Shown: piece by piece, positions 213 through 51,615 of the stretch
How positions within the stretch are numbered: position 1 is the stretch's first letter
Layout: the number at the start of each line of letters is the position of its first letter
Source of the DNA: a virus
DNA length: 64,000 bases
Virus record (IMG/VR): IMGVR_UViG_3300028534_000002
Direction: 5' to 3' (one strand)
The notes under the pieces: model-generated
Databases searched by the model: none
What the model saw: the letters and a program-made list of their open reading frames with translations, nothing else
What the model was told of the DNA's origin: nothing
Made by a program: the position numbers and the translations under genes

Positions 213-272
213 AGAAAGTAGGTTGTGCACACTATAGTATGTGATGATAACCTATTTGAACCAGTATGTGTT

Positions 273-299
273 TTGCGGTCTAAAAAGTTGAGACCGCAA
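273..299. terminator. hairpin between convergent genes (candidate bidirectional terminator)
   Basis: TTGCGGTC-n11-GACCGCAA, 8-bp perfect stem, between the + strand stop (212) and the minus-strand stop (349). Nested inside GAACCAGT (258-265) ... ACTGGTTC (333-340). Confidence 0.6.
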
Positions 300-348
300 A
301 TAAGAGTTTGTATTTTACATACTTCCCACCTCACTGGTTCATGATTGT

Positions 349-8500: not shown

Positions 8501-11500
8501 ATCCATTCCGAATGACTGCGCAAGGAATACCTCAAACATTTCAGTATTAGATAACTCTTCTGTTATCGCTATTTCATCAACTAATCTTTTGGAACCAGGT
8601 CGTGTGTCTAGTTTCGACTTGTAGTCTTTTGAAATTACGAATGTTCTGTGAATCTTTGACTCTTGAACATTTAGGTCAGATTTAATTGTCATACGCTCTG
8701 ATTTTGTTACTCCCCATGGTATGTAAAATGAGCTTACAGTACCATCCTGGTTCTTCATAGATTCATAGTGTTTGACAAGAGCATCTGCTTCACGCTCATA
8801 CTTCTCATTGTGAGCCTTCTGAAGCTTCATTTCATCAATTGTCATGTCATTTGTAAGCTCAACGTATCCAAACTGTTTAAGCGCTTGTTTTTTGTCTTTT
8901 TTATACTCCTTAACAAAGTCTTCTGTTGTATCTGCAAAGAACATCTCTGTTTCGTTATTTTTCTCTATGTCTTTCTTGTGCTTGTCGTCAAGCTTTATAA
9001 ACGAATTTATTAGAGTATCGTTTTCTTTTACTTTATATGGCATCCTCTTTGGTGGTAATCTTTTTGATCCTTCGTTAATGTATTGTATATTTGAATAGTC
9101 TTCTTTATATTCCTTCCATAGCATCATTTTTTCTGTGTCAATCTGAACCATGTGCATATTCTTGCCTGTCACATTTTCTTGAATGATCTCTCCTGCATCA
9201 TTCTCAATAACTAATCCGTTTAAATTTGCACCAATACTTGCTTCTATTCCAGCCTCAACAAGTCTTGACGTTTCTATGTCAATGTTGCTATTAAACTTTA
9301 TTCCAAGTCTTGACATCACAACAGATTTAACCTCTGACTCAAGTGTTCGCATTGGAACAAACCCTTTGAATGCCATTGTCTTTAGTTTCATTGCAGAGAC
9401 ATTATCTATTCCGAAATCTTTTGATATATCATCTGTATCCATTGATGCTATATTGTTTTTTACTGATGAATAACTCATTAGAGCCATTACGGTACCAAAC
9501 TTCAATGCATCCTTAAGCTGCTCAGATTCAACTCCTATTGCACTTAATGATGACACAAAGTCTTTTCCATCAGTATGGAAAATTTTACCATTATTGTCAA
9601 CCTCTGTTCTTGTTGATTCTATGATTTTTATATCATCAATTCTATGCATATATTTAGATACGTTTACTACTGATTTTACAACACTTTCATCAATCTTGTT
9701 TAGTTCAGCCCATGCCAACAGCTGTTCTTTTGTAGCGTTAAACAAATTTCCAAGTCTTGATAGAACTGTCTTTTTTTCTTTCATATACGCTTTTATATTG
9801 TCGTTCTTAACCTCTTCTACAAATTGTGAACCAGCTGTTTTTATGTCTTTTATAACATCATTTGGCTTGCTTATTTTTGCATTTAGAGATGATTCTATTC
9901 TTAGCTTATTTGATGATTCTACTGTTGCTATATCAAGGAAAACCTTTACTGCAACATCGTTGTTATTGCCAAGCTCTTTCATCGCCTTATTGACATACTC
10001 TTTTGTTTTTGCTTCAATATCTCTTCGCTTCTCTTCGAGCTCGAGAATCTTTTTGCGTTGCTTACTTCCATCTCTATCATCATTTAGTTTTGATGATATC
10101 TGTCTTAGTCTTGTTATGAACCTACTTTCTGTATCTCCAAACCTATCCTCTATTTCATTTATATACTTTATATGCTTTGCTATATTCTCATTGTGTTGCT
10201 TCACTCTTTTCTCTATTTTGTTAGCTTGTTTATCAAACTCTTTTTTGCCAATTGTTCCGTTTTTTAGTTTGCCAGCAAGAACAGTAAGGTTCATTTGAAG
10301 ATCACTTATTCTTTTTTGCTCAGACATTATTGTATTCTTGTTTTTTTCTACTGAATTATTTTTCTTTTCAAGTGATTCTTTGTATCTGTTATAAATTTTG
10401 TCATATGCATCTTCTAGCTTTTCTCTTGAAGTCTTTGCGTATTCTGTTGCTTTATCTATCTTGTCAAGCTTTTTTAGCTGACTCTCTATATCGGATCTTA
10501 TCTTCTTGACTTGGTTCTGATATATCGATGCAAGTTTCATTAGTTTGTTTTTCGCAGAGCTTCTTAGAGACGATGAATCGTTTCCTTTTCTAGACTGCTT
10601 TACATCCTCTTTGAGCTTTTTCCTTAATGACTCTTCGCTCTCTTTATTAAGTTTATTCTCTAATTCTTTTTTCTTTTCCTTTGTAGACTCTATTGCATTG
10701 TCTATCTCATCTATAACTCTTTTTTTTGAACGAATGTCAACTTTGCCTTTGCTCTCATATGCGTCTATGATATCATAAACCTTTTTTAATGAATCTCTTT
10801 TTTTCATTAATTTTGAAATAGTATTTTTTATTTTCTTTAATGATTTTTTTAGTGCGTCTATTGCATCAAGCACTGCTTGCTTTGAATTAGCAAGAATAGA
10901 ACTATTGCCTCTGTGAGATTTCTCTTTTTTTAGATCAATATTTTTTAACTTGTTTTTCTCTAGTCCTTTTTCCTGTCTTTCTTTTGCTCGCTCGTACTTC
11001 TTTATCTTTTCGTCAACTTTTCTTAGTTGCTTCTCTATTGATTTCTTGACATTTTTCAGTACAACCCTGTCAGCATCACTTAGGTTTTTATCGTCCTTAG
11101 TCATGTCATTTAATCGTTGCTTTAGATATTCAAATTCTCTTATTTCAGCATCAATTGACCTTGTATCGTATTCACCTACAGAATAGCCACTTGGCTCACT
11201 ATCACCTTCATTTGCGTTATTTTCTTTACTGTTATTTTTTGACTCACTAGTTACTACTTGTTCGACTTGCTTCTGAATGTTTTTGTAATTTTCTGCATTG
11301 CTATTATTTTCTACTATATTTGCACTATTGTTTTCTGTTTCTTTTGTTGTACCATTACTATCACCTGGTTCGCTGTTTTTTTGTTCTATCTCAGAAACTC
11401 TTTTTGCAACAAGATCCCTTAACTTCTTGTACAGTTTATATGATAGTGCATTATTGTTTATTATGTTTGCAAATCCAAGTTTTACTTCATCAACTGTTTT

Positions 11501-14500
11501 TGCTTCAACCACTCCCTTCTCAAGCTCTTCTGGAATAGACTGTATAACATCACTAGACCTAGTATTCATTCTATGAGACAGATACTCAAGTTCGTCATCT
11601 GTGCCTTTTAATGTTCCTGAATTTATAGCGCCTACTATGTCAGTCTTACTGAATGTTCCAGATTCAATTTCTCTAATGAAGTCTCTTGCTGTCTTGCCTG
11701 AACCAGTCTGCAGTGGATTTCCTTTTCCAGAAATTATCCCTGCATACATCTTCATAAATTCATTTGCAGTCTGTGGGTCAGAGAATCCATTATTTATTGA
11801 AAATAATATTCTGTTTGCATCATTTGCTGTTTTTGCAGATCTTATCTCATTTCTTAGCTTTACTGCCTCGTCTGGATCCATTGTTTTTTCTTGTACTTTG
11901 TTTCCTTCTGAAAACTTTGAGTTTATAAATTTTGTTGCATCACTTACAGTTGCATCCTCAAAATCTCTTATAGCATTCTCTAGATTCTCTTTCTCGTTTG
12001 GGTCAATATCTTTTACTGTTGATAGTACATTCCTAGCAAGATTTGCTGCCCTAATATTTTCGTCACCAGTTTGAGCAACAAAATTATAAACACCTCTAAT
12101 AGGTGTTCCATTGTCACTTTCGAATCTCAGCTTGTTTTTTCTTTCTTTTGCCCACTCAGCAAGCATTTCTGAGCTTGCAAAACCATCATCTGATTCTCTT
12201 ACATTATCGATTAAGTTAGCTTCATATTGCTTAAGTGATGGCTTTAGGATGCTTCCTGTGTCACCAACAAATCCAACTATGTCAACTTCTGAACCAACAC
12301 TGTCAAGTGACTTTTCAAAAACGTCTGATGTATTGTATGCATTAACAACTGCTCTAGCTTTCTTTAGGTCTGTACTGTCAATTCCTTGCTTCTCGGCATC
12401 CTCTATTGCTATATCGATTGAGTCAATAATTCCGCCAAGTTTTCCTTTTACAGGGTTTAGTGTGTCAACTTTATTGTCTGTTGTAGCAGAGTCAAGTAAG
12501 CCACCAACGTCGCTTTCTACATCTGAACTAATGTCAGATCCTCTTGATTCGGCTTTATACAGATCAACAACATCACGTATTGCATCTTGGGCGAACTTGT
12601 TAAAGAATGAACTTTTCTCATCGTCACTTAAAGAATCTGATGCAAACAATGCTTCAAGCATGTCTCTTTTTACTTCCTTTGGATGCTTGCTTTGTCTGAT
12701 TACGCTTGCAGTATCTCTTGCAATTTTTTCCTTCATGTCTGATGTTAGGTTTTCTCCAAACTTGTCAAGCGTATCTTTGTATGTTTTTTCTACCTCAACT
12801 TTTAGTTTTTCTGGATCAGTTGTTTGTGCAATTTTTGATGCAAGATATTTTGCAGAGTCTTTTGATGCTCTTCCAACTGATTTTGCAAGATCTGCGCTTG
12901 CTACTGCTGCATCCTCAAGCTTGTTGTCTGTTGACATATTGATTGTACCGAGAGCTTTTCCAGCACTTGACATCGCATATGAACCAGTTGATGCTGTAGC
13001 ATGCGTAACAAATCCTGCACCTGCACCCATAGCCATTGCACCAATTGCCTCATCCTGGTTCTCTTTGTCGTTGTATGATTCAACAAATGTTTTTCCATCC
13101 ACTCCAACGTCTTTTCCTAAAATCTCTCCCCACGTTTGCAAGTACTCTTGGACACCTTCTTTGCCTGTAGCCTCTGCCATTCCAATAGACGTGCTATATA
13201 TTTTGCCAAGAACGCTTTTTTCGTACGATGTTCCCTTTACTGCATCGTAAGCACTCTTGAATGCAGACCTAAGCTGTGTTGACTTTATGATGTCGTCAAA
13301 CGCAACTTTATCTAATCCAGTTAGGAAATATTGAGATGCTGCTATAGCAGTAAACTCTCCAAGACTAATATCATCATCTCCATTTGCCATTCTTTCTTCA
13401 ATTACATTGTTAGTATTTTTTGCCCAAACAGATTTGAATCCAAAGTTTGTTGATGCCTCTTTTGCAAGAGATGTAAACGTTGACTGGTTCGCAAGAGTTT
13501 CTACGGCAGCAATATCTGCTCCTTCAGTCCTTAATGCAGTTTTAAGAGAATTTAACTCAGATGTATACTTCTTTACCTTTGCAATGTCTCCAGTTGCCTC
13601 AGCAACCTTCAGAGCTTTTTCTGTGCTAGAAAATTTCTTTGCAAGACTTGCAGCCTTAACACCAGCACCTGCACCTAGTGAACCAGTCATCAGGATCATC
13701 TCTGGTAGCGATTCTACCATTGTGTTACCTTTTGCACCTAGGTCATTAAATACTGCGTCAAAATAGTCTCCTCTGTTCCATGCAGCAATCGCCTCTCTTG
13801 TTGCCTCTGTTTGAGCCTGTGTATCATATCCAACCCACTTTGCTGCATTGTCAGATATTGTGTCTCCAATATTATCTTCTAGAGAATTTTCTGCACCAAG
13901 CTTTTCAAGCACGTATCCGAGCGATGTGGAACCAACATCAATAAGGTCTCCTCCAAGTCTTACAGCACCGTATTGAAAAGCATCTATTACACTATCTGAT
14001 CCAGTATGCTTTTTCCAGTACTCATTGCTACTTTGTAGTGATTTTTCAGCATTAGCATATGTGTCATCTCTAGACTGGTTCTCGTCGACTCCAAGTAAGT
14101 CTTTTTGATATAGCTCTGTGTATCCATCGTTGAAATTTAATCCACTTGATTTGTTGTTTCCCTTGTCTACTGCAATATTGCTTATGAATCTTTTATGAAA
14201 AGAGTTTTCATACTCTTCGGCTCCGCCAAACCTCTTATCCCACAGAAGCTCAATTCCTTGAGATGCAAAATTTCCTTTTACCCTGTCCCATGCGCCTGCT
14301 TTTGCGTATCCAACTTTATAGTTGTATTGATCATTACCATCTTTATCTTTTCCAGCATATTGTTTATATGAGTATAAAACATTTTGAGCATTTGGATCCT
14401 CTTCTACATTTTTTGCATAAGCAATAAATTCATTATCATCCATTTCGTCGAATGCATTTGCTGAACCAGATGCATCATAATTTTTATTTGCTCCAGATAC

Positions 14501-14812
14501 AACACGTCCATTATCATATATATCAAACTGGTAACTATCTCCTGCATCAAACACTGATGATACAAAGCTATTGTATTTAGATTTAAGAGATTTTGTCCAA
14601 TCACTGTCTTCTTTTAGGAATCCTCTATCGTCTAATTCAAGTTTGTTTCTCTGATCATGTAGTGGATTATCGTCTCTGTAGTTTCTGTAATTTGCTAGTT
14701 CATAGTCGTACAGGAATCTGTCTGCACTACTGTATAAATCATTTACTTCATCATCATAGGATGCAAGCTGATTTTGTAAGTTTTCAAATTCTGATGGCAT
14801 ATTTTTCTCCAA
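5597..14812 (-). CDS. virion-encapsidated RNA polymerase-like giant protein (N4 gp50-type vRNAP), 3071 aa
   Basis: GGAG RBS. T7-like single-subunit polymerase motifs read directly: motif A YGEADGITSGP (Asp2196, nt 8225-8227); motif B RFLSKDPTMTFGYG (R-x3-K-x7-YG, aa 2350-2363, nt 7763-7765 for the Arg); motif C-like SIHSLDGS (Asp2627, nt 6932-6934). A-to-C spacing of 431 aa is close to what I recall for N4 mini-vRNAP (about 390). Sits at the distal end of the late operon as in N4. Confidence 0.8.
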   Translation of the reverse strand: MEKNMPSEFENLQNQLASYDDEVNDLYSSADRFLYDYELANYRNYRDDNPLHDQRNKLELDDRGFLKEDSDWTKSLKSKYNSFVSSVFDAGDSYQFDIYDNGRVVSGANKNYDASGSANAFDEMDDNEFIAYAKNVEEDPNAQNVLYSYKQYAGKDKDGNDQYNYKVGYAKAGAWDRVKGNFASQGIELLWDKRFGGAEEYENSFHKRFISNIAVDKGNNKSSGLNFNDGYTELYQKDLLGVDENQSRDDTYANAEKSLQSSNEYWKKHTGSDSVIDAFQYGAVRLGGDLIDVGSTSLGYVLEKLGAENSLEDNIGDTISDNAAKWVGYDTQAQTEATREAIAAWNRGDYFDAVFNDLGAKGNTMVESLPEMILMTGSLGAGAGVKAASLAKKFSSTEKALKVAEATGDIAKVKKYTSELNSLKTALRTEGADIAAVETLANQSTFTSLAKEASTNFGFKSVWAKNTNNVIEERMANGDDDISLGEFTAIAASQYFLTGLDKVAFDDIIKSTQLRSAFKSAYDAVKGTSYEKSVLGKIYSTSIGMAEATGKEGVQEYLQTWGEILGKDVGVDGKTFVESYNDKENQDEAIGAMAMGAGAGFVTHATASTGSYAMSSAGKALGTINMSTDNKLEDAAVASADLAKSVGRASKDSAKYLASKIAQTTDPEKLKVEVEKTYKDTLDKFGENLTSDMKEKIARDTASVIRQSKHPKEVKRDMLEALFASDSLSDDEKSSFFNKFAQDAIRDVVDLYKAESRGSDISSDVESDVGGLLDSATTDNKVDTLNPVKGKLGGIIDSIDIAIEDAEKQGIDSTDLKKARAVVNAYNTSDVFEKSLDSVGSEVDIVGFVGDTGSILKPSLKQYEANLIDNVRESDDGFASSEMLAEWAKERKNKLRFESDNGTPIRGVYNFVAQTGDENIRAANLARNVLSTVKDIDPNEKENLENAIRDFEDATVSDATKFINSKFSEGNKVQEKTMDPDEAVKLRNEIRSAKTANDANRILFSINNGFSDPQTANEFMKMYAGIISGKGNPLQTGSGKTARDFIREIESGTFSKTDIVGAINSGTLKGTDDELEYLSHRMNTRSSDVIQSIPEELEKGVVEAKTVDEVKLGFANIINNNALSYKLYKKLRDLVAKRVSEIEQKNSEPGDSNGTTKETENNSANIVENNSNAENYKNIQKQVEQVVTSESKNNSKENNANEGDSEPSGYSVGEYDTRSIDAEIREFEYLKQRLNDMTKDDKNLSDADRVVLKNVKKSIEKQLRKVDEKIKKYERAKERQEKGLEKNKLKNIDLKKEKSHRGNSSILANSKQAVLDAIDALKKSLKKIKNTISKLMKKRDSLKKVYDIIDAYESKGKVDIRSKKRVIDEIDNAIESTKEKKKELENKLNKESEESLRKKLKEDVKQSRKGNDSSSLRSSAKNKLMKLASIYQNQVKKIRSDIESQLKKLDKIDKATEYAKTSREKLEDAYDKIYNRYKESLEKKNNSVEKNKNTIMSEQKRISDLQMNLTVLAGKLKNGTIGKKEFDKQANKIEKRVKQHNENIAKHIKYINEIEDRFGDTESRFITRLRQISSKLNDDRDGSKQRKKILELEEKRRDIEAKTKEYVNKAMKELGNNNDVAVKVFLDIATVESSNKLRIESSLNAKISKPNDVIKDIKTAGSQFVEEVKNDNIKAYMKEKKTVLSRLGNLFNATKEQLLAWAELNKIDESVVKSVVNVSKYMHRIDDIKIIESTRTEVDNNGKIFHTDGKDFVSSLSAIGVESEQLKDALKFGTVMALMSYSSVKNNIASMDTDDISKDFGIDNVSAMKLKTMAFKGFVPMRTLESEVKSVVMSRLGIKFNSNIDIETSRLVEAGIEASIGANLNGLVIENDAGEIIQENVTGKNMHMVQIDTEKMMLWKEYKEDYSNIQYINEGSKRLPPKRMPYKVKENDTLINSFIKLDDKHKKDIEKNNETEMFFADTTEDFVKEYKKDKKQALKQFGYVELTNDMTIDEMKLQKAHNEKYEREADALVKHYESMKNQDGTVSSFYIPWGVTKSERMTIKSDLNVQESKIHRTFVISKDYKSKLDTRPGSKRLVDEIAITEELSNTEMFEVFLAQSFGMDPDKNSKYNVFKSIRSRIDVYGGNVSITYKDGESEWKALSDYVKGIGEDSDNLATIFHKFEGAHSVMAAKELRKLNRTSDTASFETVLYGEADGITSGPALLNMKVLGDHQLKMLEKAGIYTDKSKQRLERYAKFLLSKKHGIHEDLIELSHGSLVEAGKYHMDIVNGETETLKDGEIIVKRIEIDGDKYDAFLDLYTTVGQYSLEAKKAFESRRDKDGKTNFDKLSAFAKRLYGMVFEEGTLSELRFLSKDPTMTFGYGAMISSIQRALTWNSFIKAIRDKMKESKSIDILKKAISDSHVENLIVSYRNSNKKDPSKDDIESFKRDGAKLANEYVSNTKNYSIYDKDRDIFREPTDVELSRMIEKNEQYKFIEISDDVHAMVHSAYGRNTIGSFYKHALNKAFGEISDMRNAFKATDLLVSSVFNAKLKVKLDAIRKKNGSISKKKYFEEVIKLHESGFGHSLDNGETRQPLYKTDNSIKSNTRDFERVVVNGNEYFASVTPDGLTFKSNSGAAVTISIHSLDGSVMQESLKNNDFTNIYDAIIVGAVQSKITNATDIYNTEWVTKSLERQDFKLYKEKADKMVSSMTEDELDAFFNLTNDIKVVKKNVSVTEGKTNRAPVYVLDFKEKGKAPKRVLNKRYQGKTKYIMSNDGENASISINDSNGVNVARIDVFKDDSGQVVAKAEVFAVAPNGMFMKATKPVVVPLNIDSVADLSVDDAISAINRKVTKDTKTYIDTKNKTKEPMYTMLTKTIAVEKHEASIEPDGDWGFLGHNLLSIPFAITHGKNVVNEGIRYFNKNVNKIFSNQMFVAGTGIVEVNIAHTKKRPREIEDWSDDFKAMYSGIIKLYGTKLREFIQLDAAKNGLTVNDINAITRTIDFEKLELKYDINDIEQQLVHNKTDSVKKAVSYIESLLKQERLNLYGVYDMFIGKNANKKIDDKKQNIPPIDRVKKKFKAYFEDKTKGCL

Positions 14813-21023: not shown

Positions 21024-21599
21024 TTAGATTCCTTGCGCTTCTCTTAATTGTTGTCTTTTAGCAATGGCCTCAAGCTCCGCTTTTGTTGGCATAGGAAGGA
21101 AGTCAACTTTGTATGCTGGTTTTGGTGCACCAACTTGAGCAACCTGCGTCCTCTTGTTATCTACTTTTTGATATCTTACTGACTGAAGGTTCTTGATGCA
21201 TCCCATAGGTAAAAACCATGGAGTTCCAAATACAACTCTGTTTGTATGCATTCCAACGATAGCATTACCCCATGTGATAAAAACAACTCTGTTTGAGTCA
21301 TCATTCTCATATGTTTCAATTTTTCTTAACTCAGTTACTTCAACTCTATGTAAAGCCATTAGTTCTCTTTTTAACTCTGCTCGTGTCTTTTTCTTCGACT
21401 TCTTTTTTTCGTCAACAGATTTTGCATCAGAAAATTCTCTGTTAAAATCATCTTCTACTTTATTTATCGCATTTGCAATTTCCTGCTTTGTTGGCTTATC
21501 TGGATCCTTTGCTTCTGGGAACCAGTGCAATCCATAGTCTTCTTCTGCAATCTTAAGTAAGTCATCTTTTGAATATTTAGAAATATCTTCTATCTTCAT
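21024..21599 (-). CDS. hypothetical virion-module protein (191 aa)
   Basis: ORF with AAGGA-type RBS, 1 nt upstream of the next gene. First conserved-block gene after the accessory island. Confidence 0.7.
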   Translation of the reverse strand: MKIEDISKYSKDDLLKIAEEDYGLHWFPEAKDPDKPTKQEIANAINKVEDDFNREFSDAKSVDEKKKSKKKTRAELKRELMALHRVEVTELRKIETYENDDSNRVVFITWGNAIVGMHTNRVVFGTPWFLPMGCIKNLQSVRYQKVDNKRTQVAQVGAPKPAYKVDFLPMPTKAELEAIAKRQQLREAQGI

Positions 21600-21660
21600 C
21601 CTGTTTGTCCTTGTGTTAAATTTGTACTATTGTATCATATGGAAGTTTAGGAGGAGATTT

Positions 21661-21681
21661 GAACCAGAAGAGTACTGGTTC
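21661..21681. repeat. GAACCAG-n7-CTGGTTC hairpin
   Basis: Perfect 7-8 bp inverted repeat preceded on the + strand by GATTT. Lies between the 225-aa gene and the 191-aa gene. Confidence 0.8.
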
Positions 21682-21709
21682 ATTGGAGTTGTTCTATGCT
21701 GTTTGTTTT

Positions 21710-21732
21710 AACTCCCCCTCTAAAGGGGAGTT
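21710..21732 (-). terminator. hairpin after the 225-aa gene (candidate terminator)
   Basis: AACTCCCC-n7-GGGGAGTT, 8-bp stem, about 45 nt past the stop. Confidence 0.5.
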
Positions 21733-21774
21733 AGATTTGTTATAAGTAGGTCGCTGATTTATTGGATGGATGGA

Positions 21775-22452
21775 CTAAACTTTAAAGAGTTTGTCGATAG
21801 CTTTTTCTTTCACAAGTAATGTGCCTTTTTTGCCATGAAATGATTTTCCTTCTACTGGAAGTCTTACTTGCCTTGTTACGACTTTTGTATCAATCAACCC
21901 CTTATCTGACATCATGTCGAGAAGTTCAGTTGCCGTAATGTTAAGTTCTGGATGCTCTTTAACGTATCTTGATGCGGTGATAAATTCTTCATCCCAGTCG
22001 TTAAATTTGTCTAGCTCTAGTTTATTAACTTTCTTCTCAAGCTTCTTGATAAGTCTTTGTTGCTCTTTGTGCTTCATTAGGGCTAGTTCGAATTTTGTTG
22101 CAAAGAAATCTGCTATAAGATTTGCTTTATGCTCTTTAACTTGTTTTGTGTTTCTCATTAATGCCAATAGTAACTCTACATGTGGCTGATACAATCTAAC
22201 ACGATTCCAATTGATTTCATTTCTATTTTCTTTTTCAACTAATTCCAATTTTGGTATCTGTATTTGGTCGGATTTTAAATCCACCCGATTTTTTATGTTC
22301 TCAATTATTCTATCTGGAAGCTCATCAAACAACTTCACATTTCTAGTAATTAATTTCTGAACTGCATCTAAGCTTACTTCGCAATATTCTGCTATATCAG
22401 TTACTACTGCGTAAGAATCTCCATTGGTGTCTTGTTTTATGATTTTGCTCAT
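21775..22452 (-). CDS. putative DNA-binding protein: N-terminal HTH plus C-terminal KilAC-like antirepressor-type domain (225 aa)
   Basis: N-terminus TDIAEYCEVSLDAVQKLI looks like a helix-turn-helix. C-terminus ITATELLDMMSDKGLIDTKVVTRQVRLPVEGKSF...GTLLVKEKAIDKL resembles the KilA-C pattern as I remember it. RBS AAAGGA. Confidence 0.45.
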   Translation of the reverse strand: MSKIIKQDTNGDSYAVVTDIAEYCEVSLDAVQKLITRNVKLFDELPDRIIENIKNRVDLKSDQIQIPKLELVEKENRNEINWNRVRLYQPHVELLLALMRNTKQVKEHKANLIADFFATKFELALMKHKEQQRLIKKLEKKVNKLELDKFNDWDEEFITASRYVKEHPELNITATELLDMMSDKGLIDTKVVTRQVRLPVEGKSFHGKKGTLLVKEKAIDKLFKV

Positions 22453-22497
22453 AAAATATCCTTTAAAATAATTTATGTGATTCCGTCAAAGTAGGGT

Positions 22498-22597
22498 ATC
22501 AGGACTTTCACCTGATTGCTTTTCGTCATACTGTGGGTAGAGTAGTTTTCATACTCTGTAATTCCGTGAAGTTTGGGTTGGATAGTCTTTCATATCC
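22498..22597. promoter_or_regulatory. array of three tandem hairpins with different stems but conserved loops and flanks
   Basis: On the + strand: GGGT-ATCAGG-actttca-CCTGAT (22498-22516), GGGT-AGAGTA-gttttca-TACTCT (22539-22557), GGGTT-GGATA-gtctttca-TATCC (22580-22597). ATTCCGT(c/g)AA is repeated between the units. Lies in the 5' leader of the 225-aa gene. Confidence 0.75.
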
Positions 22598-22607
22598 GTA
22601 GAAGTAT

Positions 22608-22616
22608 ATTATAGCA
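22608..22616 (-). promoter_or_regulatory. extended -10 sigma70-type promoter element (TGcTATAAT on the minus strand)
   Basis: Read directly; there is no good -35. It would start a transcript about 145 nt upstream of the 225-aa gene, spanning the three hairpins. Confidence 0.4.
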
Positions 22617-22628
22617 TATATTTGATTT

Positions 22629-22651
22629 GAACCAGTCAATGCAACTGGTTC
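22629..22651. repeat. GAACCAGT-n7-ACTGGTTC hairpin
   Basis: Perfect 8-bp arms (9 with the flanking T/A), preceded on the + strand by GATTT. Lies just past the micropeptide stop. Confidence 0.8.
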
Positions 22652-22663
22652 ATGAGAGTTTGG

Positions 22664-22711
22664 TTAGCGTTTACGTTTACCGCCACCTTTTTTCTTGGTT
22701 TTACAAGCCAT
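22664..22711 (-). CDS. 15-aa highly basic micropeptide MACKTKKKGGGKRKR (candidate small ORF)
   Basis: ATG preceded by AAAGGAG at 6-nt spacing; 15 codons then TAA. Bracketed by the two GAACCAGT hairpins at 22773-22799 and 22629-22651. Below the size cutoff of the ORF track. Confidence 0.4.
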   Translation of the reverse strand: MACKTKKKGGGKRKR

Positions 22712-22772
22712 GGTGATCTCCTTTCATAGTTTGTAAGTTAATTATATTGTATTTTACTTTATGGATTGATTT

Positions 22773-22799
22773 GAACCAGTGAGAGAGGTTGACTGGTTC
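22773..22799. repeat. GAACCAGT-n11-ACTGGTTC hairpin
   Basis: Perfect 8-9 bp arms, preceded on the + strand by GATTT. Lies 17 nt past the J-domain gene stop. Confidence 0.8.
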
Positions 22800-22816
22800 A
22801 TAATGGATTATTGTTA

Positions 22817-23902
22817 CTACAAGAAAGCTTTGTTTACTTTATCGAGAGCAGATTCTCTTTTTGTCTTCCTTCCATTCTTCTTTGTTGGCTCTTTTTTTAT
22901 GATACATTCTTTATCTAAATACTGCTTCAGCACTCTCATGTTTGCCTCGGCAATCAAAAAGTCTCTATCTGTTCCTCCTTTGTCTGGGTGATTCTCTGAT
23001 AATATCTTTTTTCTGAACGTTTTGTATTTCGATTCAGTGTTTAGCGTTTTTATAAAATCTTCATCAATGCTATATGTACTCTTTATTCTCTCTATTGGCT
23101 TGTCAGAGAATGCTATTGCAAGTATGTTTCCGTTATATTTAGCGTTCATTTCTGAGAATGTTAAGTATTCGGCTTCTAGTATAGCTTTGAGTTTTTTTTC
23201 TTCAGCAATCTTGTTTGCAATCTCTTCGCCTTTCTTGACGGCATTTGTATCTGCGAAGTCAATAAATTCACATAAAATTTCTTCACCATTTTCTTCTGTT
23301 TCTTTTACGCTGATATACTCCGCGTGAACCTTAAGCACATCCTCTCTCCATGAGCCGTTTCCGAATAAAACGTGTTTAAAATCATACACATGATTAACCT
23401 TTATTACATCAACCTTCATCGTTTTTGCATCTTCGTCATACCCGTCATAGTTTATAACCTGTTCACCGTGTTGCATCTGTGCAAGAAGGTATACTGCTTC
23501 AATATCCTCTCTTGCTATGCCTTTGCCTGTCAAATTGTATATTGTACCAATAGTAACACCTTTGCCCGTAGTGCTGTTGTAGTCAAAAAAGTATAACGTA
23601 CAATAGAACGGACCAATAATTTGAACAAGGTATGGTCTATCTTCTTTTGAATAGTCAGAAAGGTTTTCGTGTGCATCGACGTATTCTGCAAAGTCATTCA
23701 GTAGTCTTGTTTGTTTTCTGTTTAACTTTTTATTGTATTTTCTCAGCGTTTTCAGGATATGCTTTGAGTCGTTGTATAGTGACATATACTCTTCTTTTCC
23801 AAACTCTTCCTTTAGCATTCTCTTTGCCTCAATAAGGTTACCGTTAAAAGTAACCATAAGTTTCTTCGCTTTCATTAATTTAATTTTATAGTCTTTAGTC
23901 AT
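22817..23902 (-). CDS. phage J-domain (DnaJ-like co-chaperone) protein, 361 aa
   Basis: The C-terminal segment YKTFRKKILSENHPDKGGTDRDFLIAEANMRVLKQYL carries the canonical HPD tripeptide between two helices. The start overlaps the upstream endonuclease stop by 1 nt (TAATG). Confidence 0.7.
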   Translation of the reverse strand: MTKDYKIKLMKAKKLMVTFNGNLIEAKRMLKEEFGKEEYMSLYNDSKHILKTLRKYNKKLNRKQTRLLNDFAEYVDAHENLSDYSKEDRPYLVQIIGPFYCTLYFFDYNSTTGKGVTIGTIYNLTGKGIAREDIEAVYLLAQMQHGEQVINYDGYDEDAKTMKVDVIKVNHVYDFKHVLFGNGSWREDVLKVHAEYISVKETEENGEEILCEFIDFADTNAVKKGEEIANKIAEEKKLKAILEAEYLTFSEMNAKYNGNILAIAFSDKPIERIKSTYSIDEDFIKTLNTESKYKTFRKKILSENHPDKGGTDRDFLIAEANMRVLKQYLDKECIIKKEPTKKNGRKTKRESALDKVNKAFL

Positions 23903-25476
23903 TACGCCATCTCCTTATATTCAAATCTATATTCATTCCAATCTTTTCCATCTCTAAGTCTTCTTGTCAGTGTTGCATTGGCTATTCCATATTTATCGCA
24001 TATATCTTTTTGTTTATTGAGCGTGTCTATATGTTTTCCATTCTTATATATGAGTATGTCTTTACCTGCCATCCTTACCTGTTTGACTGGTTCAACATGT
24101 TCATCGAAGCTCCATAAGTAACCTCCTGCGTGCTTTCTCTTTCCGTTGCACACTGCACCAATATGTCCTATTCCTGTCTCTTTTGAAGCCTCTGTAATAC
24201 TATTGAACTTTGCAATTAGCTCTCCATCCAATGTGAACTGATAGACCTCTTTCTGTTTTGATGGCATAGTGTATTCTCTGCATGACCATCCAGTAGCTTT
24301 TTTGTGCGATGATTTAGGAGTGACTGGTTCAATATGTGCTTTTGTAATCTCTTTTGCCTCCTGTTTAGTTTTATACGCTTTGTCAAGCTTCTTGAGGTTT
24401 TCATACGCCTGTTTTGCAAGTTGAGCTTTTACAGCCTCTCTCTGTTTTGCTTTTTCTTCTTTAGCTCTCTTATCTTCAAAATAGTTTATAGCAACAAGCA
24501 CAGGTTTGCTATCGTCTAGTATTCTTGTTATTTCGCCAATGTCATCATTGTTTAGCTCGAACCATTCTCTGAAGATGTTTTTGTCAGAATATTTGTCATG
24601 CAAAAACTTTTCAACGGTTGTTACGAAGTCTATTTCTTCTGAGACATACAAGAGCTCTATACCGTTTGGGTTGGAGTTTTTTAGTGACGATATTCTTTTT
24701 TCAATATCATGAGTTATTCCTATCTTGTGTGCAATTGAGATTTCGTTATCTTTAATGTATGGAGTTGTAACAATATAAACTTTATCACTTGCAGTCATTG
24801 ACTTCAATGATAGCAACTCTTCTATGACTTTATCTCTCTGGTTCTCAGTAAGCTTATATACTGTTTTTGTTCTAGGCGACAACCCTTTGAAATCGTTTTC
24901 ATCAAACACATCTTTGTATTTTTCTATTGAGGACATAAGTGCTCTGTTTATTAGCTCAAAGTTTGCACTTAGCTCTGCCCCTAACTTTGCTGTATTTGAA
25001 CCAGTCCAAGATAAAGCCTTTAATCTAATAGCTTCTTTTGTTTTATCTGAGGCATCGAAGTATGAATTCTCTTTTGAGTGTGGAAGATCTTTATTTTTCT
25101 TTAGCAATTTTGTTCTTCCATTTACTGCGTACATTCTAATGTTTGAAAAACAATTGTACATATCAGTAACAAAATCATGAAGACTTTTCCACTCTGAATC
25201 GTTTTTTACAGAAGTGTTCCATATCTTTTTTAATAAACTATAGTATGGTTTTGAGCTTAGGCCATGAGTTCTTCTTGCATCACCATCATACTCTCTATTG
25301 ATTGAGCCTGCTGATAGAGCTTTTGATTTGCACTCTTTTGATCCACATGTTTTATTTACTTTGCCGTGACTCATTCTTTTTACTACATGATTATTGCATA
25401 TTGGGCACTCAAATAGTCCTTGTCTTACTCTTTGATTATTTAGTCTGGTTGGTTCAACTTCTTTAATAAGCTTCAT
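23902..25476 (-). CDS. free-standing homing endonuclease-like protein (Zn finger + T5orf172/GIY-YIG-superfamily nuclease + NUMOD-like HTH repeats), 524 aa
   Basis: CPICN...CGSKEC at the N-terminus. Central HKIGITHDIEKRISSLKNSNP...FLHDKY...FREWFEL matches the T5orf172 pattern. Two C-terminal repeats of the type ...ASKETGIGHIGAVCNGKRKHAGGYLWSF. Inserted just downstream of the capsid gene. Confidence 0.75.
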   Translation of the reverse strand: MKLIKEVEPTRLNNQRVRQGLFECPICNNHVVKRMSHGKVNKTCGSKECKSKALSAGSINREYDGDARRTHGLSSKPYYSLLKKIWNTSVKNDSEWKSLHDFVTDMYNCFSNIRMYAVNGRTKLLKKNKDLPHSKENSYFDASDKTKEAIRLKALSWTGSNTAKLGAELSANFELINRALMSSIEKYKDVFDENDFKGLSPRTKTVYKLTENQRDKVIEELLSLKSMTASDKVYIVTTPYIKDNEISIAHKIGITHDIEKRISSLKNSNPNGIELLYVSEEIDFVTTVEKFLHDKYSDKNIFREWFELNNDDIGEITRILDDSKPVLVAINYFEDKRAKEEKAKQREAVKAQLAKQAYENLKKLDKAYKTKQEAKEITKAHIEPVTPKSSHKKATGWSCREYTMPSKQKEVYQFTLDGELIAKFNSITEASKETGIGHIGAVCNGKRKHAGGYLWSFDEHVEPVKQVRMAGKDILIYKNGKHIDTLNKQKDICDKYGIANATLTRRLRDGKDWNEYRFEYKEMA

Positions 25477-25673: not shown

Positions 25674-27032
25674 CTAGGCCACCTTGCCGCTCACGAGCAT
25701 CGTTCTAATGTGTTCAGGTTTGTTCACAAGTAGTCCGAAGTACCAGTCAATCGCAATTGAACCGCGATCTCCATGATTATCAATACCAGGAATAACTCTA
25801 GGAGCACCATGTTTGACACGAGCAACTTCACCTTGAAGAGCATATGTTTCAAATGAATCACTACCAACAACCAACATTGGGAATACGTCATAATGACCAT
25901 CTGTTACGTGCATGTTTGCTCCGCTATCTTCAATTCCGTCGCCATCATTGTCAGCTCCGTCAGTTGCATCCGCACCTTCACCTTTGAATACTGGCATGTC
26001 ATGAACTGAGATGAATCTGAAGTCACCAATTCGTCCAATTTCTCCATCTGCTGTTGTAGATGTTTTATTAATAACGGTTGAACCAGCAGGCGCAATTCCA
26101 GCACCATCAGCATATTCAGCTACATCTTGGAATAAGACTTTACCATTGTGTTCAAGATCTTCTAGTGTAGGAATAAGCTCTTGTGGAACAAAGATGTATC
26201 GTGCAGAACGAATTGTAACAGTATCAATCTTTGTTGAACCAGTCACCATGTTTGTATCAACAGGACATCTTGCTTCATTGAGTGACTGCTTAAGCATACG
26301 AAGCATTGGGAATGTTAACTGACATGTTTCATCAACTTCTTCGATAGTTGTCGCTCCACCACCATAAGTAGCATTTTGCATACCTTGAGTAATTAACTCA
26401 TTTCTGATCTGTGCTTCACGAATATCGGCATATGCTTCTGCAACTTTTTGCACTTGCTTTGTCAATAAAGATGTATCGGTATCAAGATCCATTGCTGCTC
26501 TAGTATATTGAATAGCAAAACCAAATCGATTAATACGTGCCTCAACGATATCACGCTTTGTACCAACGATGTTTACGGCTCCACCCTCTTCACCAAGAAT
26601 TGGGAATGCTCCAGTCTGTACGTTAAAGTCTCGACTTGAACCAAATAGGTTACCATCACCTTTTTGTACACGTACTTGACCTGCTCGCGCTTTAGCTTCA
26701 GCAAGCGTATCATGCTCTTGTCTTGTTGCTGGATCAGTTGGATCTGTCCAAGAGTACCATTTTCCAGGAACCATTTTTACACCATTTGCATCAATACCTT
26801 GATCGTTGATGTTTGCATCATGTAGAATTGGATATTCTCGATACTTCTTGATTTTTACACCATAGTTCTTTGGTTGCTTTCGTGCAGCACCCATTTGAGA
26901 GAACACTTTTTTCTTTGCTGCTTCAAGTACTGCGAATCTAGACCAATGAAAGTCATTTAGCTGAGCACCAACACTTGAAGTTGCTGGATCTAATCCACCA
27001 TCGTTATACACTTGTCCGTTAAAATCGGCCAT
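25674..27032 (-). CDS. major capsid protein (452 aa)
   Basis: Strong RBS AAGGAA. Lies immediately downstream of the acidic scaffold-like gene and downstream of the portal, as in N4-like genomes. Visibly higher GC and more G/C-ending codons than its neighbours. Followed by the hairpin at 25618-25648. Call is positional and compositional, not homology-verified. Confidence 0.65.
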   Translation of the reverse strand: MADFNGQVYNDGGLDPATSSVGAQLNDFHWSRFAVLEAAKKKVFSQMGAARKQPKNYGVKIKKYREYPILHDANINDQGIDANGVKMVPGKWYSWTDPTDPATRQEHDTLAEAKARAGQVRVQKGDGNLFGSSRDFNVQTGAFPILGEEGGAVNIVGTKRDIVEARINRFGFAIQYTRAAMDLDTDTSLLTKQVQKVAEAYADIREAQIRNELITQGMQNATYGGGATTIEEVDETCQLTFPMLRMLKQSLNEARCPVDTNMVTGSTKIDTVTIRSARYIFVPQELIPTLEDLEHNGKVLFQDVAEYADGAGIAPAGSTVINKTSTTADGEIGRIGDFRFISVHDMPVFKGEGADATDGADNDGDGIEDSGANMHVTDGHYDVFPMLVVGSDSFETYALQGEVARVKHGAPRVIPGIDNHGDRGSIAIDWYFGLLVNKPEHIRTMLVSGKVA

Positions 27033-27057: not shown

Positions 27058-28284
27058 TTATAGCATCTTATACATTTGTTCTAAGAATGCGTCATTGTCA
27101 AGATCCATAAGATCTCTTTTTTTGTTTGTTTTTGCAGTTGATTTATCAACCTGCTCACTTGATTTACTTGCTTTTTTTGCAGCCTCAAGTCTATTGTTTT
27201 TATTTTCAACTTTTTGTTTTACCTCTCTTTGTTCAACGGCTTCCTTTACTGGTTGCTCTTCAACAAGTCTTTGAGGTTCATTTTTTTTGACGTATTTCTC
27301 AGCGAGCGAATTGCTTGCTACAACATACTTGTCAAAATCACTCATATGTCTAAATTGTCCACTTAGGTCTCTAAGTTCAAGCGATTTGATTTCTTCTTGA
27401 ACCTTGTTAAATGAACCTGTTTTAATATGGTTTAGCAAATGTTGCTTTGAAGCATCATCATTGATTAGCTTCGTGATTGAGTCGCTATCCCATTTTTTGA
27501 CAACATTATCAACAAAAGGCTCTTCAATTCCAAGCTTTGCTGATGTGTCTAAAAGATCGTTAAATTTGATTTCAATCTCTGGAACCAAATGCTTAGAAGG
27601 ATCAATCGAGCTCTCATCAATCTCATCCAAGTCCAATTCCATTGGATCAATCTCATTCTCTTTCATTAGTTTCTTGAGTGCATCTGGGTTACCGTTTGCT
27701 GCTTCAAGAACCAATGCTAGTTTGTTCTGATCTTCAAGTAATCCGTTCTTTTTAAGCGCTTCCAGCATTGGTCGCTGCTTATCGAACGTATCAACTTTAC
27801 CAATCATTTCCGCATATTTCTTTTGCATCTGTATAATACTTTCAGGATCACTAAGTCCGTCAACTGTGAATCCATCAATATCAACTTTTGCTCCAGTAAG
27901 CGCTTCCTTGAATTTCTTTAGCTGTTCATACTCTTCAAGTTTTCGTCTTACATCTTCGTCAATGTCTAAATTTGCATTTTTGTCTGTTTCATCAGTTGTT
28001 TCCTCTGGTTGTTCCTGGTCGATGTCAATATCTTCCTCTGTTTCCTCAGAACCATCTGTTTCAACTACTTCAATGTTATCAGACTCTTCCTTAATGTTTT
28101 CTTCGTCACCTTCAACAGCATCATTGTCAATACTGTCCTGCTGAGTATCGTTATCTACTACATCGTCAACAGCACTAACTGGTTCATCAAGAACCAGTGG
28201 TTTCTGTGACTCTCTGTCGATAAACTCAAGAAAGTCCTCTGGACTCATTTCCATTGGGTCAATTTCATTTTCTGCTACAGACAT
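27058..28284 (-). CDS. scaffolding-like acidic protein (408 aa)
   Basis: Very D/E-rich, helical-looking sequence directly upstream of the capsid gene. Confidence 0.5.
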   Translation of the reverse strand: MSVAENEIDPMEMSPEDFLEFIDRESQKPLVLDEPVSAVDDVVDNDTQQDSIDNDAVEGDEENIKEESDNIEVVETDGSEETEEDIDIDQEQPEETTDETDKNANLDIDEDVRRKLEEYEQLKKFKEALTGAKVDIDGFTVDGLSDPESIIQMQKKYAEMIGKVDTFDKQRPMLEALKKNGLLEDQNKLALVLEAANGNPDALKKLMKENEIDPMELDLDEIDESSIDPSKHLVPEIEIKFNDLLDTSAKLGIEEPFVDNVVKKWDSDSITKLINDDASKQHLLNHIKTGSFNKVQEEIKSLELRDLSGQFRHMSDFDKYVVASNSLAEKYVKKNEPQRLVEEQPVKEAVEQREVKQKVENKNNRLEAAKKASKSSEQVDKSTAKTNKKRDLMDLDNDAFLEQMYKML

Positions 28285-32628: not shown

Positions 32629-32768
32629 ATTATCTTCCTTTTCTAATAATTATAACAGCATCCAGTGGTAATGAAGTTTAAAACAAGGAGATTGTATTTT
32701 TTTTGTAGGAGTGTAGAAAGTATTAATTACTGAACTGGATGCCTTGACAATTATCTCCAAAATATGCT

Positions 32769-34122: not shown

Positions 34123-35584
34123 AAATTATATCGTCGATACATATATCGCCTTGATATCCTGTTGCATCATGGTATCTTATAAGTACCTTTTCTGCATTTG
34201 ATCCAGTTACGTCAAGATCAATCTGATGCCAATCTGTACCCTGGTCTCCAGATACAGAAAACTGAACAGTCTCACCGTCTGCATCATTCCATGTTACAAC
34301 TTCGAACACTCCAGAATTTGATCCTTCAAGTTGATACTGCAATGCTATTCTCGTTAATTTTGAAAAATAATTTGATGATAGCTCTAAAAACTCTTGGTTT
34401 CCATTTGATGACATCTCTCCATATACCATGTATGTGCCTTCTACTGGTTCTTGAGAACCAGTTCCAGACGATGGTGTTGTCGAGTCGTATCTGTTCCATT
34501 TACCAGCATCTGTTCCATTAACAGTATTTCCCCAATGGTCACTTTCAAAATGAAGATCTATATCATTCTCATCTTCCCATCCATTGCTGTATACTCCAGA
34601 TGGACCATCTCCGTATCCTGGCCTTGTTATTGATTTTCCAGTTCCTATCTCAACCCATTTGCTGACACTGTAGTCATATCTACAGAAGTTGTCTAGTTCT
34701 ATAAGATACGCAAGCTCTCCACTATACCTTGGCACATAATCCCATAGGTCTTCTCTTGTTTCAAAGAACTTTGTTAGTTGGATCTGATAATCTCCTATAT
34801 TGACCAGTCCAGGACTACGACCAGATGAAAATGTATCTAAAACACCCTTGTTGTCATGCGTGTGCAACGAACTAAGATCTGGCTTGTCAGTTAGTGAGTT
34901 GTATGACTTCTCAGAAAGGTTTGCTAGATTATGAGAATGTGTTCCATTTGCAACATCATCAACTCCTGTTCCAAAGTTCTTGTTGAATGCAGTATTCTTC
35001 TCAAAAGTATCTTCTTTAGAGTTTATCATACTTACTATAACTGGACCTTGTGATGCAGCAATCGACACTGTGCTATCAGTTGAATCTAGTCCGTCATACA
35101 CGTCTCTTTGCGCAACAACTGTATCAACCTCATTTCCATTGTATGTAAGATTTCCATCATCGTTTATACCTAATCCATCAAGAATGCTTTTGTTAGAATG
35201 ATCATGAACGTCAGGCTTATCTGTCAATGAATTGTAGCTTCTCTCTGATAAATCGGCTAGGTTATGCGTATGAACCAATGGTGCTTTTTCATTTAAAGCA
35301 AACTGAACGTCTGTTGATATAGGCTTGTCAATATCAGATGTATTGTCAACATTATCGAGTCCAATATGGTACTTCGTTACAGCATGTGGATTATTTGTAT
35401 TGTTTATGTGTTCAGAGTTGTCAACATTTAATTTAGCAGCGTTACCAAAAGTATGTGATTCAACAGACCCATCAAGGTTTGTCCAAGTGAATGTAACATC
35501 TTTTGCATCAACACCAGCCCAGTCCTTCATCACTGATAAGATTGCATTTGCATTCTGAACTAAAATATCTACTGCTCTTGCCAT
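34106..35584 (-). CDS. tail fibre / receptor-binding protein with MAM-like C-terminal domain (492 aa)
   Basis: Duplicated fibre motif H(T/S)HNLA(D/N)LSE(R/K)SYNSLTDKPD. The C-terminus ends ...VLIRYHDATGYQGDICIDDIIFE, resembling the GDIAIDDI end of MAM domains. Confidence 0.65.
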   Translation of the reverse strand: MARAVDILVQNANAILSVMKDWAGVDAKDVTFTWTNLDGSVESHTFGNAAKLNVDNSEHINNTNNPHAVTKYHIGLDNVDNTSDIDKPISTDVQFALNEKAPLVHTHNLADLSERSYNSLTDKPDVHDHSNKSILDGLGINDDGNLTYNGNEVDTVVAQRDVYDGLDSTDSTVSIAASQGPVIVSMINSKEDTFEKNTAFNKNFGTGVDDVANGTHSHNLANLSEKSYNSLTDKPDLSSLHTHDNKGVLDTFSSGRSPGLVNIGDYQIQLTKFFETREDLWDYVPRYSGELAYLIELDNFCRYDYSVSKWVEIGTGKSITRPGYGDGPSGVYSNGWEDENDIDLHFESDHWGNTVNGTDAGKWNRYDSTTPSSGTGSQEPVEGTYMVYGEMSSNGNQEFLELSSNYFSKLTRIALQYQLEGSNSGVFEVVTWNDADGETVQFSVSGDQGTDWHQIDLDVTGSNAEKVLIRYHDATGYQGDICIDDIIFESED

Positions 35585-51096: not shown

Positions 51097-51615
51097 CTAT
51101 AATATTTTTCCGTTTCTTTCTCTTATAAGTTTCCAAAACAATCTTCTTGGTGAGTAGTTACATGCTCCAGCCTTTCCAAATACAACCTCATGAACTACCT
51201 CTGAGCAAAACACTTTACTGTTACCGCAGAACCAGTCTATAAAGCTGAATGCAGAAAATATTGCACCAAAGTAATCATATCTTTTATCACTGTACATACT
51301 TACAACTTCAAGTATATTTGCGTCTATGTTTTCAATGCTATCTACATCTATCTCAACGATATCCCAATTGTCATTATTTAGTAATCTATCAATAGCAGCT
51401 TTTCTTATTGTTATCCCATTACTCCTAGGCGATACAGACAGCAACGACTTATTGTCGCTCATGTATATTTCAACATGACTATAATTGCTAAATGTTGCAA
51501 GTCCTATTGTCCAGTCAACAATTGTAGATCCATTGCAAAATGATCTATAAAATGCTATGTACGCTTTATCCATTATTGTCCCTCCAAATATGATTATATC
51601 AGTCAATTGGTTCAT
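51097..51615 (-). CDS. first late-operon gene; possible permuted papain-fold (NlpC/P60, YiiX-like) peptidase (172 aa)
   Basis: SNYSHVEIY and ...KVFCSEVVHEVVFG resemble the His and Cys segments of YiiX/C92-type enzymes. This is a weak, memory-based call. Confidence 0.35.
   Translation of the reverse strand: MNQLTDIIIFGGTIMDKAYIAFYRSFCNGSTIVDWTIGLATFSNYSHVEIYMSDNKSLLSVSPRSNGITIRKAAIDRLLNNDNWDIVEIDVDSIENIDANILEVVSMYSDKRYDYFGAIFSAFSFIDWFCGNSKVFCSEVVHEVVFGKAGACNYSPRRLFWKLIRERNGKIL

Follow-up and report, generated by a model that had tools for sequence, protein, structure and literature searches.

Inverted word pairs as proposed modules of the late block

The subject of this report is a 64,000-nucleotide stretch of viral DNA (IMG/VR virus record IMGVR_UViG_3300028534_000002; hereafter, the window), in which a short word, GAACCAG, recurs on both strands and forms, in gene-free DNA, inverted pairs of the type GAACCAG(T)...(A)CTGGTTC that fold into hairpins. 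The explanation that we favour, and to which we give somewhat better than even chances, is that these intergenic pairs serve the late gene block as composite regulatory cassettes, comparable to promoter-early stem-loop (PeSL) cassettes and to morons, with stems built from a word that is under selection. In such a module, a stem-loop just after one gene would attenuate or end the upstream transcript, or protect its 3′ end, and a sigma-70-type −10 element, frequently extended by TGn, would allow host RNA polymerase (RNAP) to start the next transcript in the late direction; the AAAT flank of the pair would be the promoter side of the module, hence its seeming genome polarity. Recombination between modules would move accessory genes. 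We propose that the modules work like PeSL cassettes or morons because they both bracket accessory genes and coincide with breakpoints of replacement or relocation between related phages, and that the stems are all made of one word because the genome would be under strong DNA-level selection for GA(A/T)CCAG, on both strands and genome-wide, as in coliphage N4. Where there are no genes, an inverted pair would at once place one copy of the word on each strand and give a hairpin.

Four convergent GAACCAG/CTGGTTC pairs are exact (258/334, 21661/21675, 22629/22645 and 22773/22793; Table 1), and all of them lie in, or at the end of, the minus-strand late block. Convergent copies at most 30 nt apart in intergenic DNA were seen three times, when about 0.06 such pairs are expected (P about 4e-5). 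The stems are 8–13 bp long with loops of 5–11 nt, up to 67 nt, and the folding energies of the four pairs range from −11 to −34 kcal/mol (z −3.5 to −5.4). An earlier reading of the window from its letters alone (the sequence-only reading) had listed these four GAACCAGT...ACTGGTTC pairs together with others that proved different: the hairpin at 54105 contains one copy of the word and that at 61009 none, and a supposed weaker hairpin at 63393–63417 did not hold up. The arms are conserved and the loops vary by substitution and indel both in the Logan contig L139 and in L015, a close relative from the same metagenome, and a G.U in one of two paralogous hairpins described below is matched by an A-U in the other.

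The claim that the hairpins sit just past stop codons stands for distances of 8–17 nt, except at 21661, where 94 nt, with a second, GC-rich hairpin (21707–21735) among them, separate the stop of the 225-aa gene from the word hairpin. On the plus strand, this GC hairpin and the one at 275–297 have a T-run on their 5′ side and an A-run on their 3′ side; in the sense of the minus-strand genes they are thus followed by an A-tract, which is the reverse of a canonical terminator. No U-tract follows any of the word stems, as had been noted; what follows is AAATC in the late sense or AT in the plus sense, and a terminator scan of the window did not call the word hairpins. With the GC-rich hairpin of an intrinsic terminator present and its U-tract missing, the word stems are not canonical intrinsic terminators. 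The terminator or RNA-processing role suggested for them keeps its structural part, stable and conserved gene-end hairpins without U-runs, and its activity is a prediction. Since the hairpins are genuine, conserved, stable and placed at gene ends, a role at transcript boundaries, as terminators or attenuators, seems reasonable.

The second component of the modules is promoter-like. In the late sense, the 3′ arm of each exact pair reads CTGGTTCAAAT and is followed by a −10-type hexamer (TGcTATAAT, TGaTACAAT, TACAAT/TATAAT or TATAGT). Hexamers with at least five of six matches to a −10 come after 4/4 arms on the AAAT side, 0/4 opposite arms and 7/64 word copies in coding sequences (CDSs). When seven modules are aligned, the four of the window and three from L016 (another close relative from the same metagenome), TAnAnT is invariant and an extended TGn is present in 4/7; a promoter scan independently called TTCAAA-17/18-TAnnnT at three of the modules. 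These sites bear on the polarity of the pairs, which the sequence-only reading took to be fixed by the genome and not by the gene. The underlying bias exists, TTTGAACCAG occurring eight times on the plus strand and never on the minus strand, with five of the eight copies being intergenic hairpins. However, all four exact pairs follow late (minus-strand) genes and are oriented as these genes are, so the argument for genome polarity rests on the single site 54106, the only example with an AAAT flank at a plus-strand gene, which lacks both a true pair and a following −10. Since a −10 follows the AAAT flank in 4/4 modules of the window and 3/3 of L016, the polarity of the pairs is that of the promoter-like site. 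The hairpin flanks in L016 differ from those of the window, and in L140/L141, an N4-like phage, hairpins of both polarities occur among co-directional genes. As we read these patterns, the hairpins are oriented to late transcription units, and it is only the mild strand bias of the word, described below, that is genome-oriented.

Each module lies between an upstream stop codon and the Shine-Dalgarno (SD) site or start of the next gene, strong SD sites being usual for the genes of the window. The genes boxed by modules are accessory ones, namely a 15-aa micro-open reading frame (micro-ORF), a 225-aa Rha-like gene, and a pair made of an HNH gene and a 361-aa gene, the latter being the J-domain gene of the sequence-only reading. 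In L139, the capsid gene of which is identical, a KilA-N gene replaces the HNH and 361-aa genes, and homology to the window breaks off at the stop codon of the capsid gene, to return 12 nt upstream of the hairpin 22772–22800. The endonuclease-type gene of the HNH region (23902–25476) sits in this swapped segment, and the micro-ORF product MACKTKKKGGGKRKR is identical in L139. In L016, the Rha-like gene is displaced by several genes, flanked on either side by a word pair, and keeps the same 3′ GC hairpin and A-tract, and the position equivalent to the Rha-like site of the window is occupied by a single word pair. A leader of roughly 150–190 nt lies between the promoter-like site and the Rha-like gene (22453–22607 in the window; 19860–20035 in L016), and the two leaders have no obvious sequence similarity. 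A search for relatives with the Rha-like protein found none.

The word along the genome and across N4-like phages

The intergenic pairs comprise only 8/80 copies of the word, the other 72 being unpaired. The sequence-only reading was right that the word is over-represented, and underweighted its genome-wide occurrence, which is common to coliphage N4. In the window, there are 51 copies of GAACCAGT versus 1.4 expected, and 80 copies of the core GAACCAG versus 5.1 ± 2.2 in dinucleotide-preserving shuffles; the excess over chance is about 15–30-fold in the window phage and in N4. The variant GATCCAG (GATCCAG/CTGGATC) is enriched too (19 copies in the window, 18 in L016). Neither codon nor amino-acid usage can account for the word, as synonymous-codon shuffles show for both the window and N4: shuffling within the genes of the window gives 11.5 ± 2.9 copies in CDSs versus 64 observed. 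These 64 copies encode xGS (24), EPx (14), NQ (13), WF (5), LV (5) and RT (3), and 14/18 EP[VADEG] tripeptides are encoded with the word. Intergenic DNA, which is about 9% of the sequence, holds 16/80 copies.

Copies on a given strand are more evenly spaced than random in the window (coefficient of variation 0.66–0.70, P 0.001–0.03) and not in N4, so this regularity weighs weakly. GAACCAG favours the sense strand of the early genes, which carries 61% of the copies in the window and 63% of those in N4 (pooled P 0.001); the share reaches 72–92% in early/middle regions versus 56–62% in late regions, and this bias is independent of transcription direction. In the early region of the window (52000–64000), 11/12 copies are on the plus strand; the early/middle bias is 72% in the contigs L142–L148 and 21:7 in the left 20 kb of N4. 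A pyrimidine stands 9 nt 3′ of CTGGTTC in 66/80 window copies, versus about 41 expected after codon-phase control; this preference, significant in the window, is excluded from the shared word because it is absent in N4.

Coliphage N4 (NC_008720) has GAACCAG as its top 7-mer, with 110 copies versus 6.5 expected. No fewer than 107 of these are in CDSs, in all six frames, where synonymous-codon shuffles give 29.4 ± 4.4, which makes the excess about 17-fold over composition and 3.6-fold over such shuffles. Orientations of the word alternate more than random in N4 (P 0.017), and despite the 110 copies there are no intergenic word pairs. T7 has nine copies and no excess, and 50 kb of E. coli K-12 contain nine versus six expected, when Chi is present 14 times versus 1.4. 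Being abundant in N4 and without excess in E. coli or T7, the word goes with the phage lineage and not with a host; for N4 and E. coli, this rules out both an uptake sequence and a host Chi.

The same enrichment is found in L014, L015 and L016, the close relatives from the same metagenome, and in L139. The window and L016 (about 70% nucleotide identity) have one word site in common and 15 private at equal density, so it is the density and not the position that is maintained; individually conserved sites were discarded as an idea, only one of about nine being common with L016, as expected at 70% identity. Among further N4-like contigs, which were retrieved via an RNAPII subunit, GAACCAG is the top 7-mer in L140–L148, contigs of 31%, 39% and 43% GC from different habitats, with 38 copies in 13 kb of L140. 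Elsewhere the top words are AAACCAG(A) in Klebsiella phage cp20, AAGCCAG/AAACCAG in Pectobacterium phage Arno152 and ATGGTTC in the contig L150, and Acinetobacter N4-like phages have other or weaker words. A metagenome scan for relatives yielded one, L161 (Ga0256828_1000439), which is closer to the window than these, with a capsid 48% identical to that of the window and 33% GC; it contains only three copies of GAACCAG, and its top word is AGAAGCT(G), with 23 copies versus 2.3 expected. The family word appears to switch between lineages. In the searchable literature, nothing relevant turned up on the word or on over-represented motifs in N4-like phages.

We regard it as a real possibility, at somewhat less than even confidence, that GA(A/T)CCAG is a cis-acting word of the N4-type family, read by a phage protein, drifting between lineages and co-opted as the stems of the cassettes. 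The reader might be a gp43-type primase/helicase, for which the word would be a priming site (gp43 of N4 carries a PriCT-1 domain), or a phage helicase-nuclease, for which it would be a Chi-like password. Genes recoded in all six frames would keep about one copy per 0.6–0.8 kb, and specificity would drift across lineages among GAACCAG, AAACCAG, AAGCCAG, GAACCAT and AGAAGCT. Our best guess is that the reader is a conserved replication/recombination protein of the N4 family that reads one strand at a time and would use the word, say, for priming or loading; our second guess is a private Chi-like password for a phage nuclease.

Further hairpins, phage identity and genome layout

Two gene-end hairpins on the plus strand are related to the modules in sequence only in part. 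The left arm of the 54105–54136 hairpin (−21 kcal/mol) is GAACCAGT and its right arm contains TTGGTTC, which gives a G.U (G.T) wobble; there is no −10 in either direction. The 61009–61060 hairpin (−23 kcal/mol) has the left arm GAACCAAT, and the right arms of both hairpins read ATTGGTTC. They are the homologous 3′ ends of paralogous genes with 51% amino-acid identity, and pairing is preserved between them, G.U in one corresponding to A-U in the other. Two inside-out copies reported within CDSs, at 28178–28198 and 34443–34462, were found as described. In L140 (an HMP N4-like phage; also in L141), a motif T(T/C)CACTTTCAA, which is a candidate middle (RNAPII) promoter, stands 15–25 nt before three start codons (416, 2372 and 3438). 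A hairpin precedes each copy. Two of the three consist of the word, the third of other sequence, and because this third one occupies the same place, structure would be the functional part and the word its usual building block.

By its gene content, the window phage is a distant N4-like podophage. This assignment follows from the major capsid protein (25674–27032, minus strand), which matches 477 Schitoviridae records at 31–35% identity, and from a 3071-aa ORF (5597–14812, minus strand), which aligns to the catalytic region of the N4 virion RNAP (vRNAP), including LYxEADGxTxGP; both being N4-like, they rule out a crAss-like identity. PHROG matches (capsid, tape-measure-like and terminase families) agree with this placement. 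Late genes occupy the minus strand from 349 to 51975, and early genes run rightward on the plus strand from ~52060. Rfam and tRNA scans of the window found no known RNA gene, and a likeness of CTGGTTCAAATC to a tRNA T-arm was dropped for want of a 3′ stem. Megablast and one tblastn against the phage collection gave no match. There are two endonuclease-type genes, the one with an HNH domain at 23902–25476 mentioned above and a T5orf172/GIY-YIG-like one at 56084–57094.

Several gene-poor stretches carry repeats. Before the first sizeable plus-strand gene, a 376-nt gene-free stretch (53164–53539) contains three copies of an AAC(T/A)TAACCTTCAAT-like sequence (53304, 53393 and 53453) and a 28-nt direct repeat (53185/53402), which are candidate early promoters or genome-end signals. 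The divergence point of the two gene blocks (51600–52100) has a tandem duplication of TTTGAATGATGACTG (51782–51812) and two copies of AACGAAGCCGAAG (51746 and 51825); it probably marks the genome ends, or the packaging region, in an assembly that was closed into a circle. Past the window end, a further 1.5 kb of sequence was all that could be added, and it contains no word pairs. The variant contig L162, which runs beyond the right end of the window, has ~1.1 kb without genes (about 2780–3900) with two long palindromes, at about 2910–3060 and 3385–3495.

Table 1. Word pairs, other hairpins, promoter-like sites and boxed genes in the window
Feature	Position	Strand	Remarks
Word GAACCAG(T)	1–64000	49 on +, 31 on −	64 copies in CDSs (all six frames), 16 intergenic
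Outer word pair, TGAACCAGT (257–265) / ACTGGTTCA (333–341)	257–341		Encloses GC hairpin 275–297; + and − units converge
Word hairpin, 8-bp stem, 7-nt loop	21660–21682	−	Upstream of 191-aa gene (21024–21599)
Word hairpin, 10-bp stem	22628–22652	−	12 nt past micro-ORF stop
Word hairpin, 9-bp stem, 11-nt loop	22772–22800	−	17 nt past 361-aa gene stop
−10-like TATAGT	231–236	−	29 nt after CTGGTTC of the 258 arm; leftward
Extended −10-like TGaTACAAT	21629–21637	−	Downstream of hairpin 21660–21682
Alternative −10 TATGAT, TTCAAA as −35	21634–21639	−	Alternative for hairpin 21660–21682
Extended −10 TGcTATAAT	22608–22616	−	23 nt after CTGGTTC of hairpin 22628–22652
−10-like TACAAT/TATAAT	22741–22751	−	After hairpin 22772–22800; TTCAAA 22770–22775 possible −35
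GC-rich hairpin, −16 kcal/mol	21707–21735	−	40 nt past 225-aa gene stop, then A-tract
225-aa accessory gene, weak Phage_pRha match	21775–22452	−	Word hairpins on both sides
15-aa basic micro-ORF, MACKTKKKGGGKRKR	22664–22711	−	Strong SD; between two word hairpins, each with a promoter-like site
Variant module GCATCCAGT, 67 nt, ACTGGATGC, then TGTTATAAT (late sense)	32658–32742	−	Upstream of 101-aa gene
Gene-end hairpin of gene 53540–54097	54105–54136	+	13 pairs including one G.U; exact word in left arm only
Gene-end hairpin of gene 60479–61000	61009–61060	+	Perfect pairing, no exact word copy
Inside-out word pair in CDS, encodes LVLDEPV	28178–28198		Conserved in L014
Inside-out word pair in CDS, encodes TGSQEPV	34443–34462		
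Inside-out GGTTCTA/TAGAACC stem, weak	63393–63417	+	Folds no better than shuffles (z −0.55)

Rival readings, related systems and significance

Several points weigh against composite cassettes. The promoter and terminator activities of the modules are predictions, and the absence of a U-tract after any stem sets these hairpins apart from canonical intrinsic terminators. The −10 elements were judged by an assumed sigma-70 consensus of the host; the 258 module faces left, towards the 3′ end of a gene on the plus strand, and there is no gene that it could drive; and cassette mobility is based on two comparisons only, L139 and L016. Moreover, all four stems use the same word, which a hairpin does not need, so that a DNA-level function may be primary, and since N4 has the word without such modules, the layers of word and module are separable.

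Two simpler readings would each drop part of the module. We think it unlikely that the pairs are RNA-level signals only, that is phage-RNAP terminators or processing/stability hairpins with neither a promoter nor a role in gene shuffling. Such signals would fit stable folds just past stop codons, and also the sense-strand G.U kept at 54105, where the change relative to 61009 preserves pairing, but no U-run follows the stems, which at 8–10 bp are too short for RNase III, and breakpoints of relatives fall at the modules. In addition, the −10 stands at a fixed place past the 3′ arm in 7/7 aligned modules, and the late genes of N4-type phages are transcribed by the host RNAP. A mainly DNA-level role, in which the pairs would be a compact two-strand supply of a regularly needed word, with hairpin and promoter incidental, strikes us as decidedly unlikely. 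That all four stems are exactly the word, that intergenic DNA has more than its share of copies, that spacing per strand is even in the window and orientations alternate in N4, and that inside-out pairs occur in CDSs, where a hairpin function is unexpected, would all be explained. However, N4 keeps a higher word density without intergenic pairs, the paralogous 61009 hairpin retains its structure without the word, and the non-word hairpin of L140 stands at the same position before the same downstream motif.

The remaining readings have much less in their favour. N4 early (vRNAP) promoters have 5–7-bp stems and 3-nt loops and lie upstream of early genes, and the sequence-only reading had suggested that the pairs could be hairpin or cruciform DNA signals of this kind, with a polarity fixed by the genome. 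This is very improbable. The phage belongs to the same family and encodes a vRNAP homologue, a DNA hairpin would again be the signal, ATTTGAACCAG is on the plus strand in 5/5 hairpins, and the word has its mild genome-strand bias; yet stem and loop geometry differ (loops here are 5–11 nt or longer), the sites lie after genes inside the late block, N4 itself is without such pairs, the downstream −10 accounts for the polarity, and L140 shows both polarities. It is hardly credible, in turn, that a dimeric DNA-binding regulator uses the pairs as operators overlapping the −35 of late promoters: inverted repeats do stand directly upstream of −10 elements, but the spacing of their arms ranges from 5 nt to 67 nt, with indels between close relatives, and most copies of the word are unpaired (72/80). 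As little credence can be given to a host-directed signal, either a DNA-uptake sequence or a host Chi. The DNA-uptake sequences (DUS) of Neisseria and the uptake signal sequences (USS) of Pasteurellaceae are short words that recur about once per kb on either strand and in every frame and form hairpins where inverted pairs follow genes, and the word of the window resembles them in its density (about one copy per 0.8 kb), its presence on both strands and in all frames, its inverted pairs after genes and the turnover of its positions at kept density. Unlike DUS and USS, which are a property of the host chromosome, it belongs to a phage lineage, with no uptake machinery involved: it is the top 7-mer of N4 and yet not enriched in E. 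coli, the host of N4, or in T7; it recurs in N4-like contigs of 31% to 43% GC from different habitats; and when paired copies (18 specified bases) were sought in 185,579 genomes, only scattered chance matches came up, in all phyla.

The composite cassettes that we favour resemble two known systems. A moron is an accessory gene with its own promoter and a terminator-like hairpin inserted between conserved genes, and classical morons end in canonical factor-independent terminators with U-runs. The accessory genes of the window likewise vary between relatives, being found in one and missing from, or placed elsewhere in, another, but their flanks are copies of one repeated module and the stems are without U-runs. 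A PeSL is a stem-loop with a sigma-70 promoter found at indel breakpoints in T4-type phages (Arbiol et al. 2010, PMC2839356), the stem-loop sometimes overlapping the −35 and breakpoints of modular shuffling falling at the cassettes (PMC2839356; see also PMC4122927). The modules of the window share with it an intergenic stem-loop followed by a sigma-70-like site (7/7 aligned), the location between stop and next SD/start, a stem-loop that may overlap the −35, repetition around non-essential genes, and breakpoints of variable genes at the cassettes (two comparisons). Unlike PeSLs, which occupy the early/hyperplastic region of T4-type myoviruses, they are in the late block of an N4-like podophage, and we therefore propose that they work like PeSLs without belonging to them by descent. 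They also differ in having 4–5 copies versus about 50 in T4-type phages, and in having stems that consist of one specific heptamer also spread through coding DNA, and their terminator and promoter activities are predicted from sequence.

For the word itself, the parallels lie elsewhere. E. coli Chi is GCTGGTGG (bioRxiv 10.1101/2020.08.13.249359), and like it the word is over-represented and asymmetric, would be read on one strand and has a mild strand bias, (A)CTGGTTC having CTGGT in common with Chi. However, N4 has only six copies of GCTGGTGG versus 110 of the word, which is not identical to the host Chi; the density of the word is 5–8 times that of Chi in E. coli; its strand bias is only about 62%; and related N4-like phages use AAACCAG, AAGCCAG, ATGGTTC and AGAAGCT. 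The recognition site of the T7 primase is 5′-TGGTC-3′. The NrS-1 primase-polymerase recognises the 8-nt 5′-TTTGGTTA-3′ (PMC8718748). The word resembles a primase site in being a 7–8-nt template word with TGGT(T/C), which would be needed on both strands every 1–2 kb, and differs in that the primase gene lies outside the window and that spacing in N4 is not regular, such a role being purely conjectural here. The PriCT-1 domain of N4 gp43 and the even spacing per strand in the window would be circumstantial support for it.

With these modules, N4-like podophages would join the phages in which accessory genes are shuffled in the PeSL/moron manner, and the modules offer testable transcription-unit boundaries in an uncultured phage. 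The word matters more than the modules. One heptamer occurs 110 times in N4, which has served as a model phage for decades, and distant relatives of 31–43% GC carry the same word, with no excess in the host E. coli or in T7. This implies a sequence-specific step along the whole genome, which may be in replication, recombination, packaging or self-recognition. That step is directly accessible in N4, and the heptamer is the part most worth following up.

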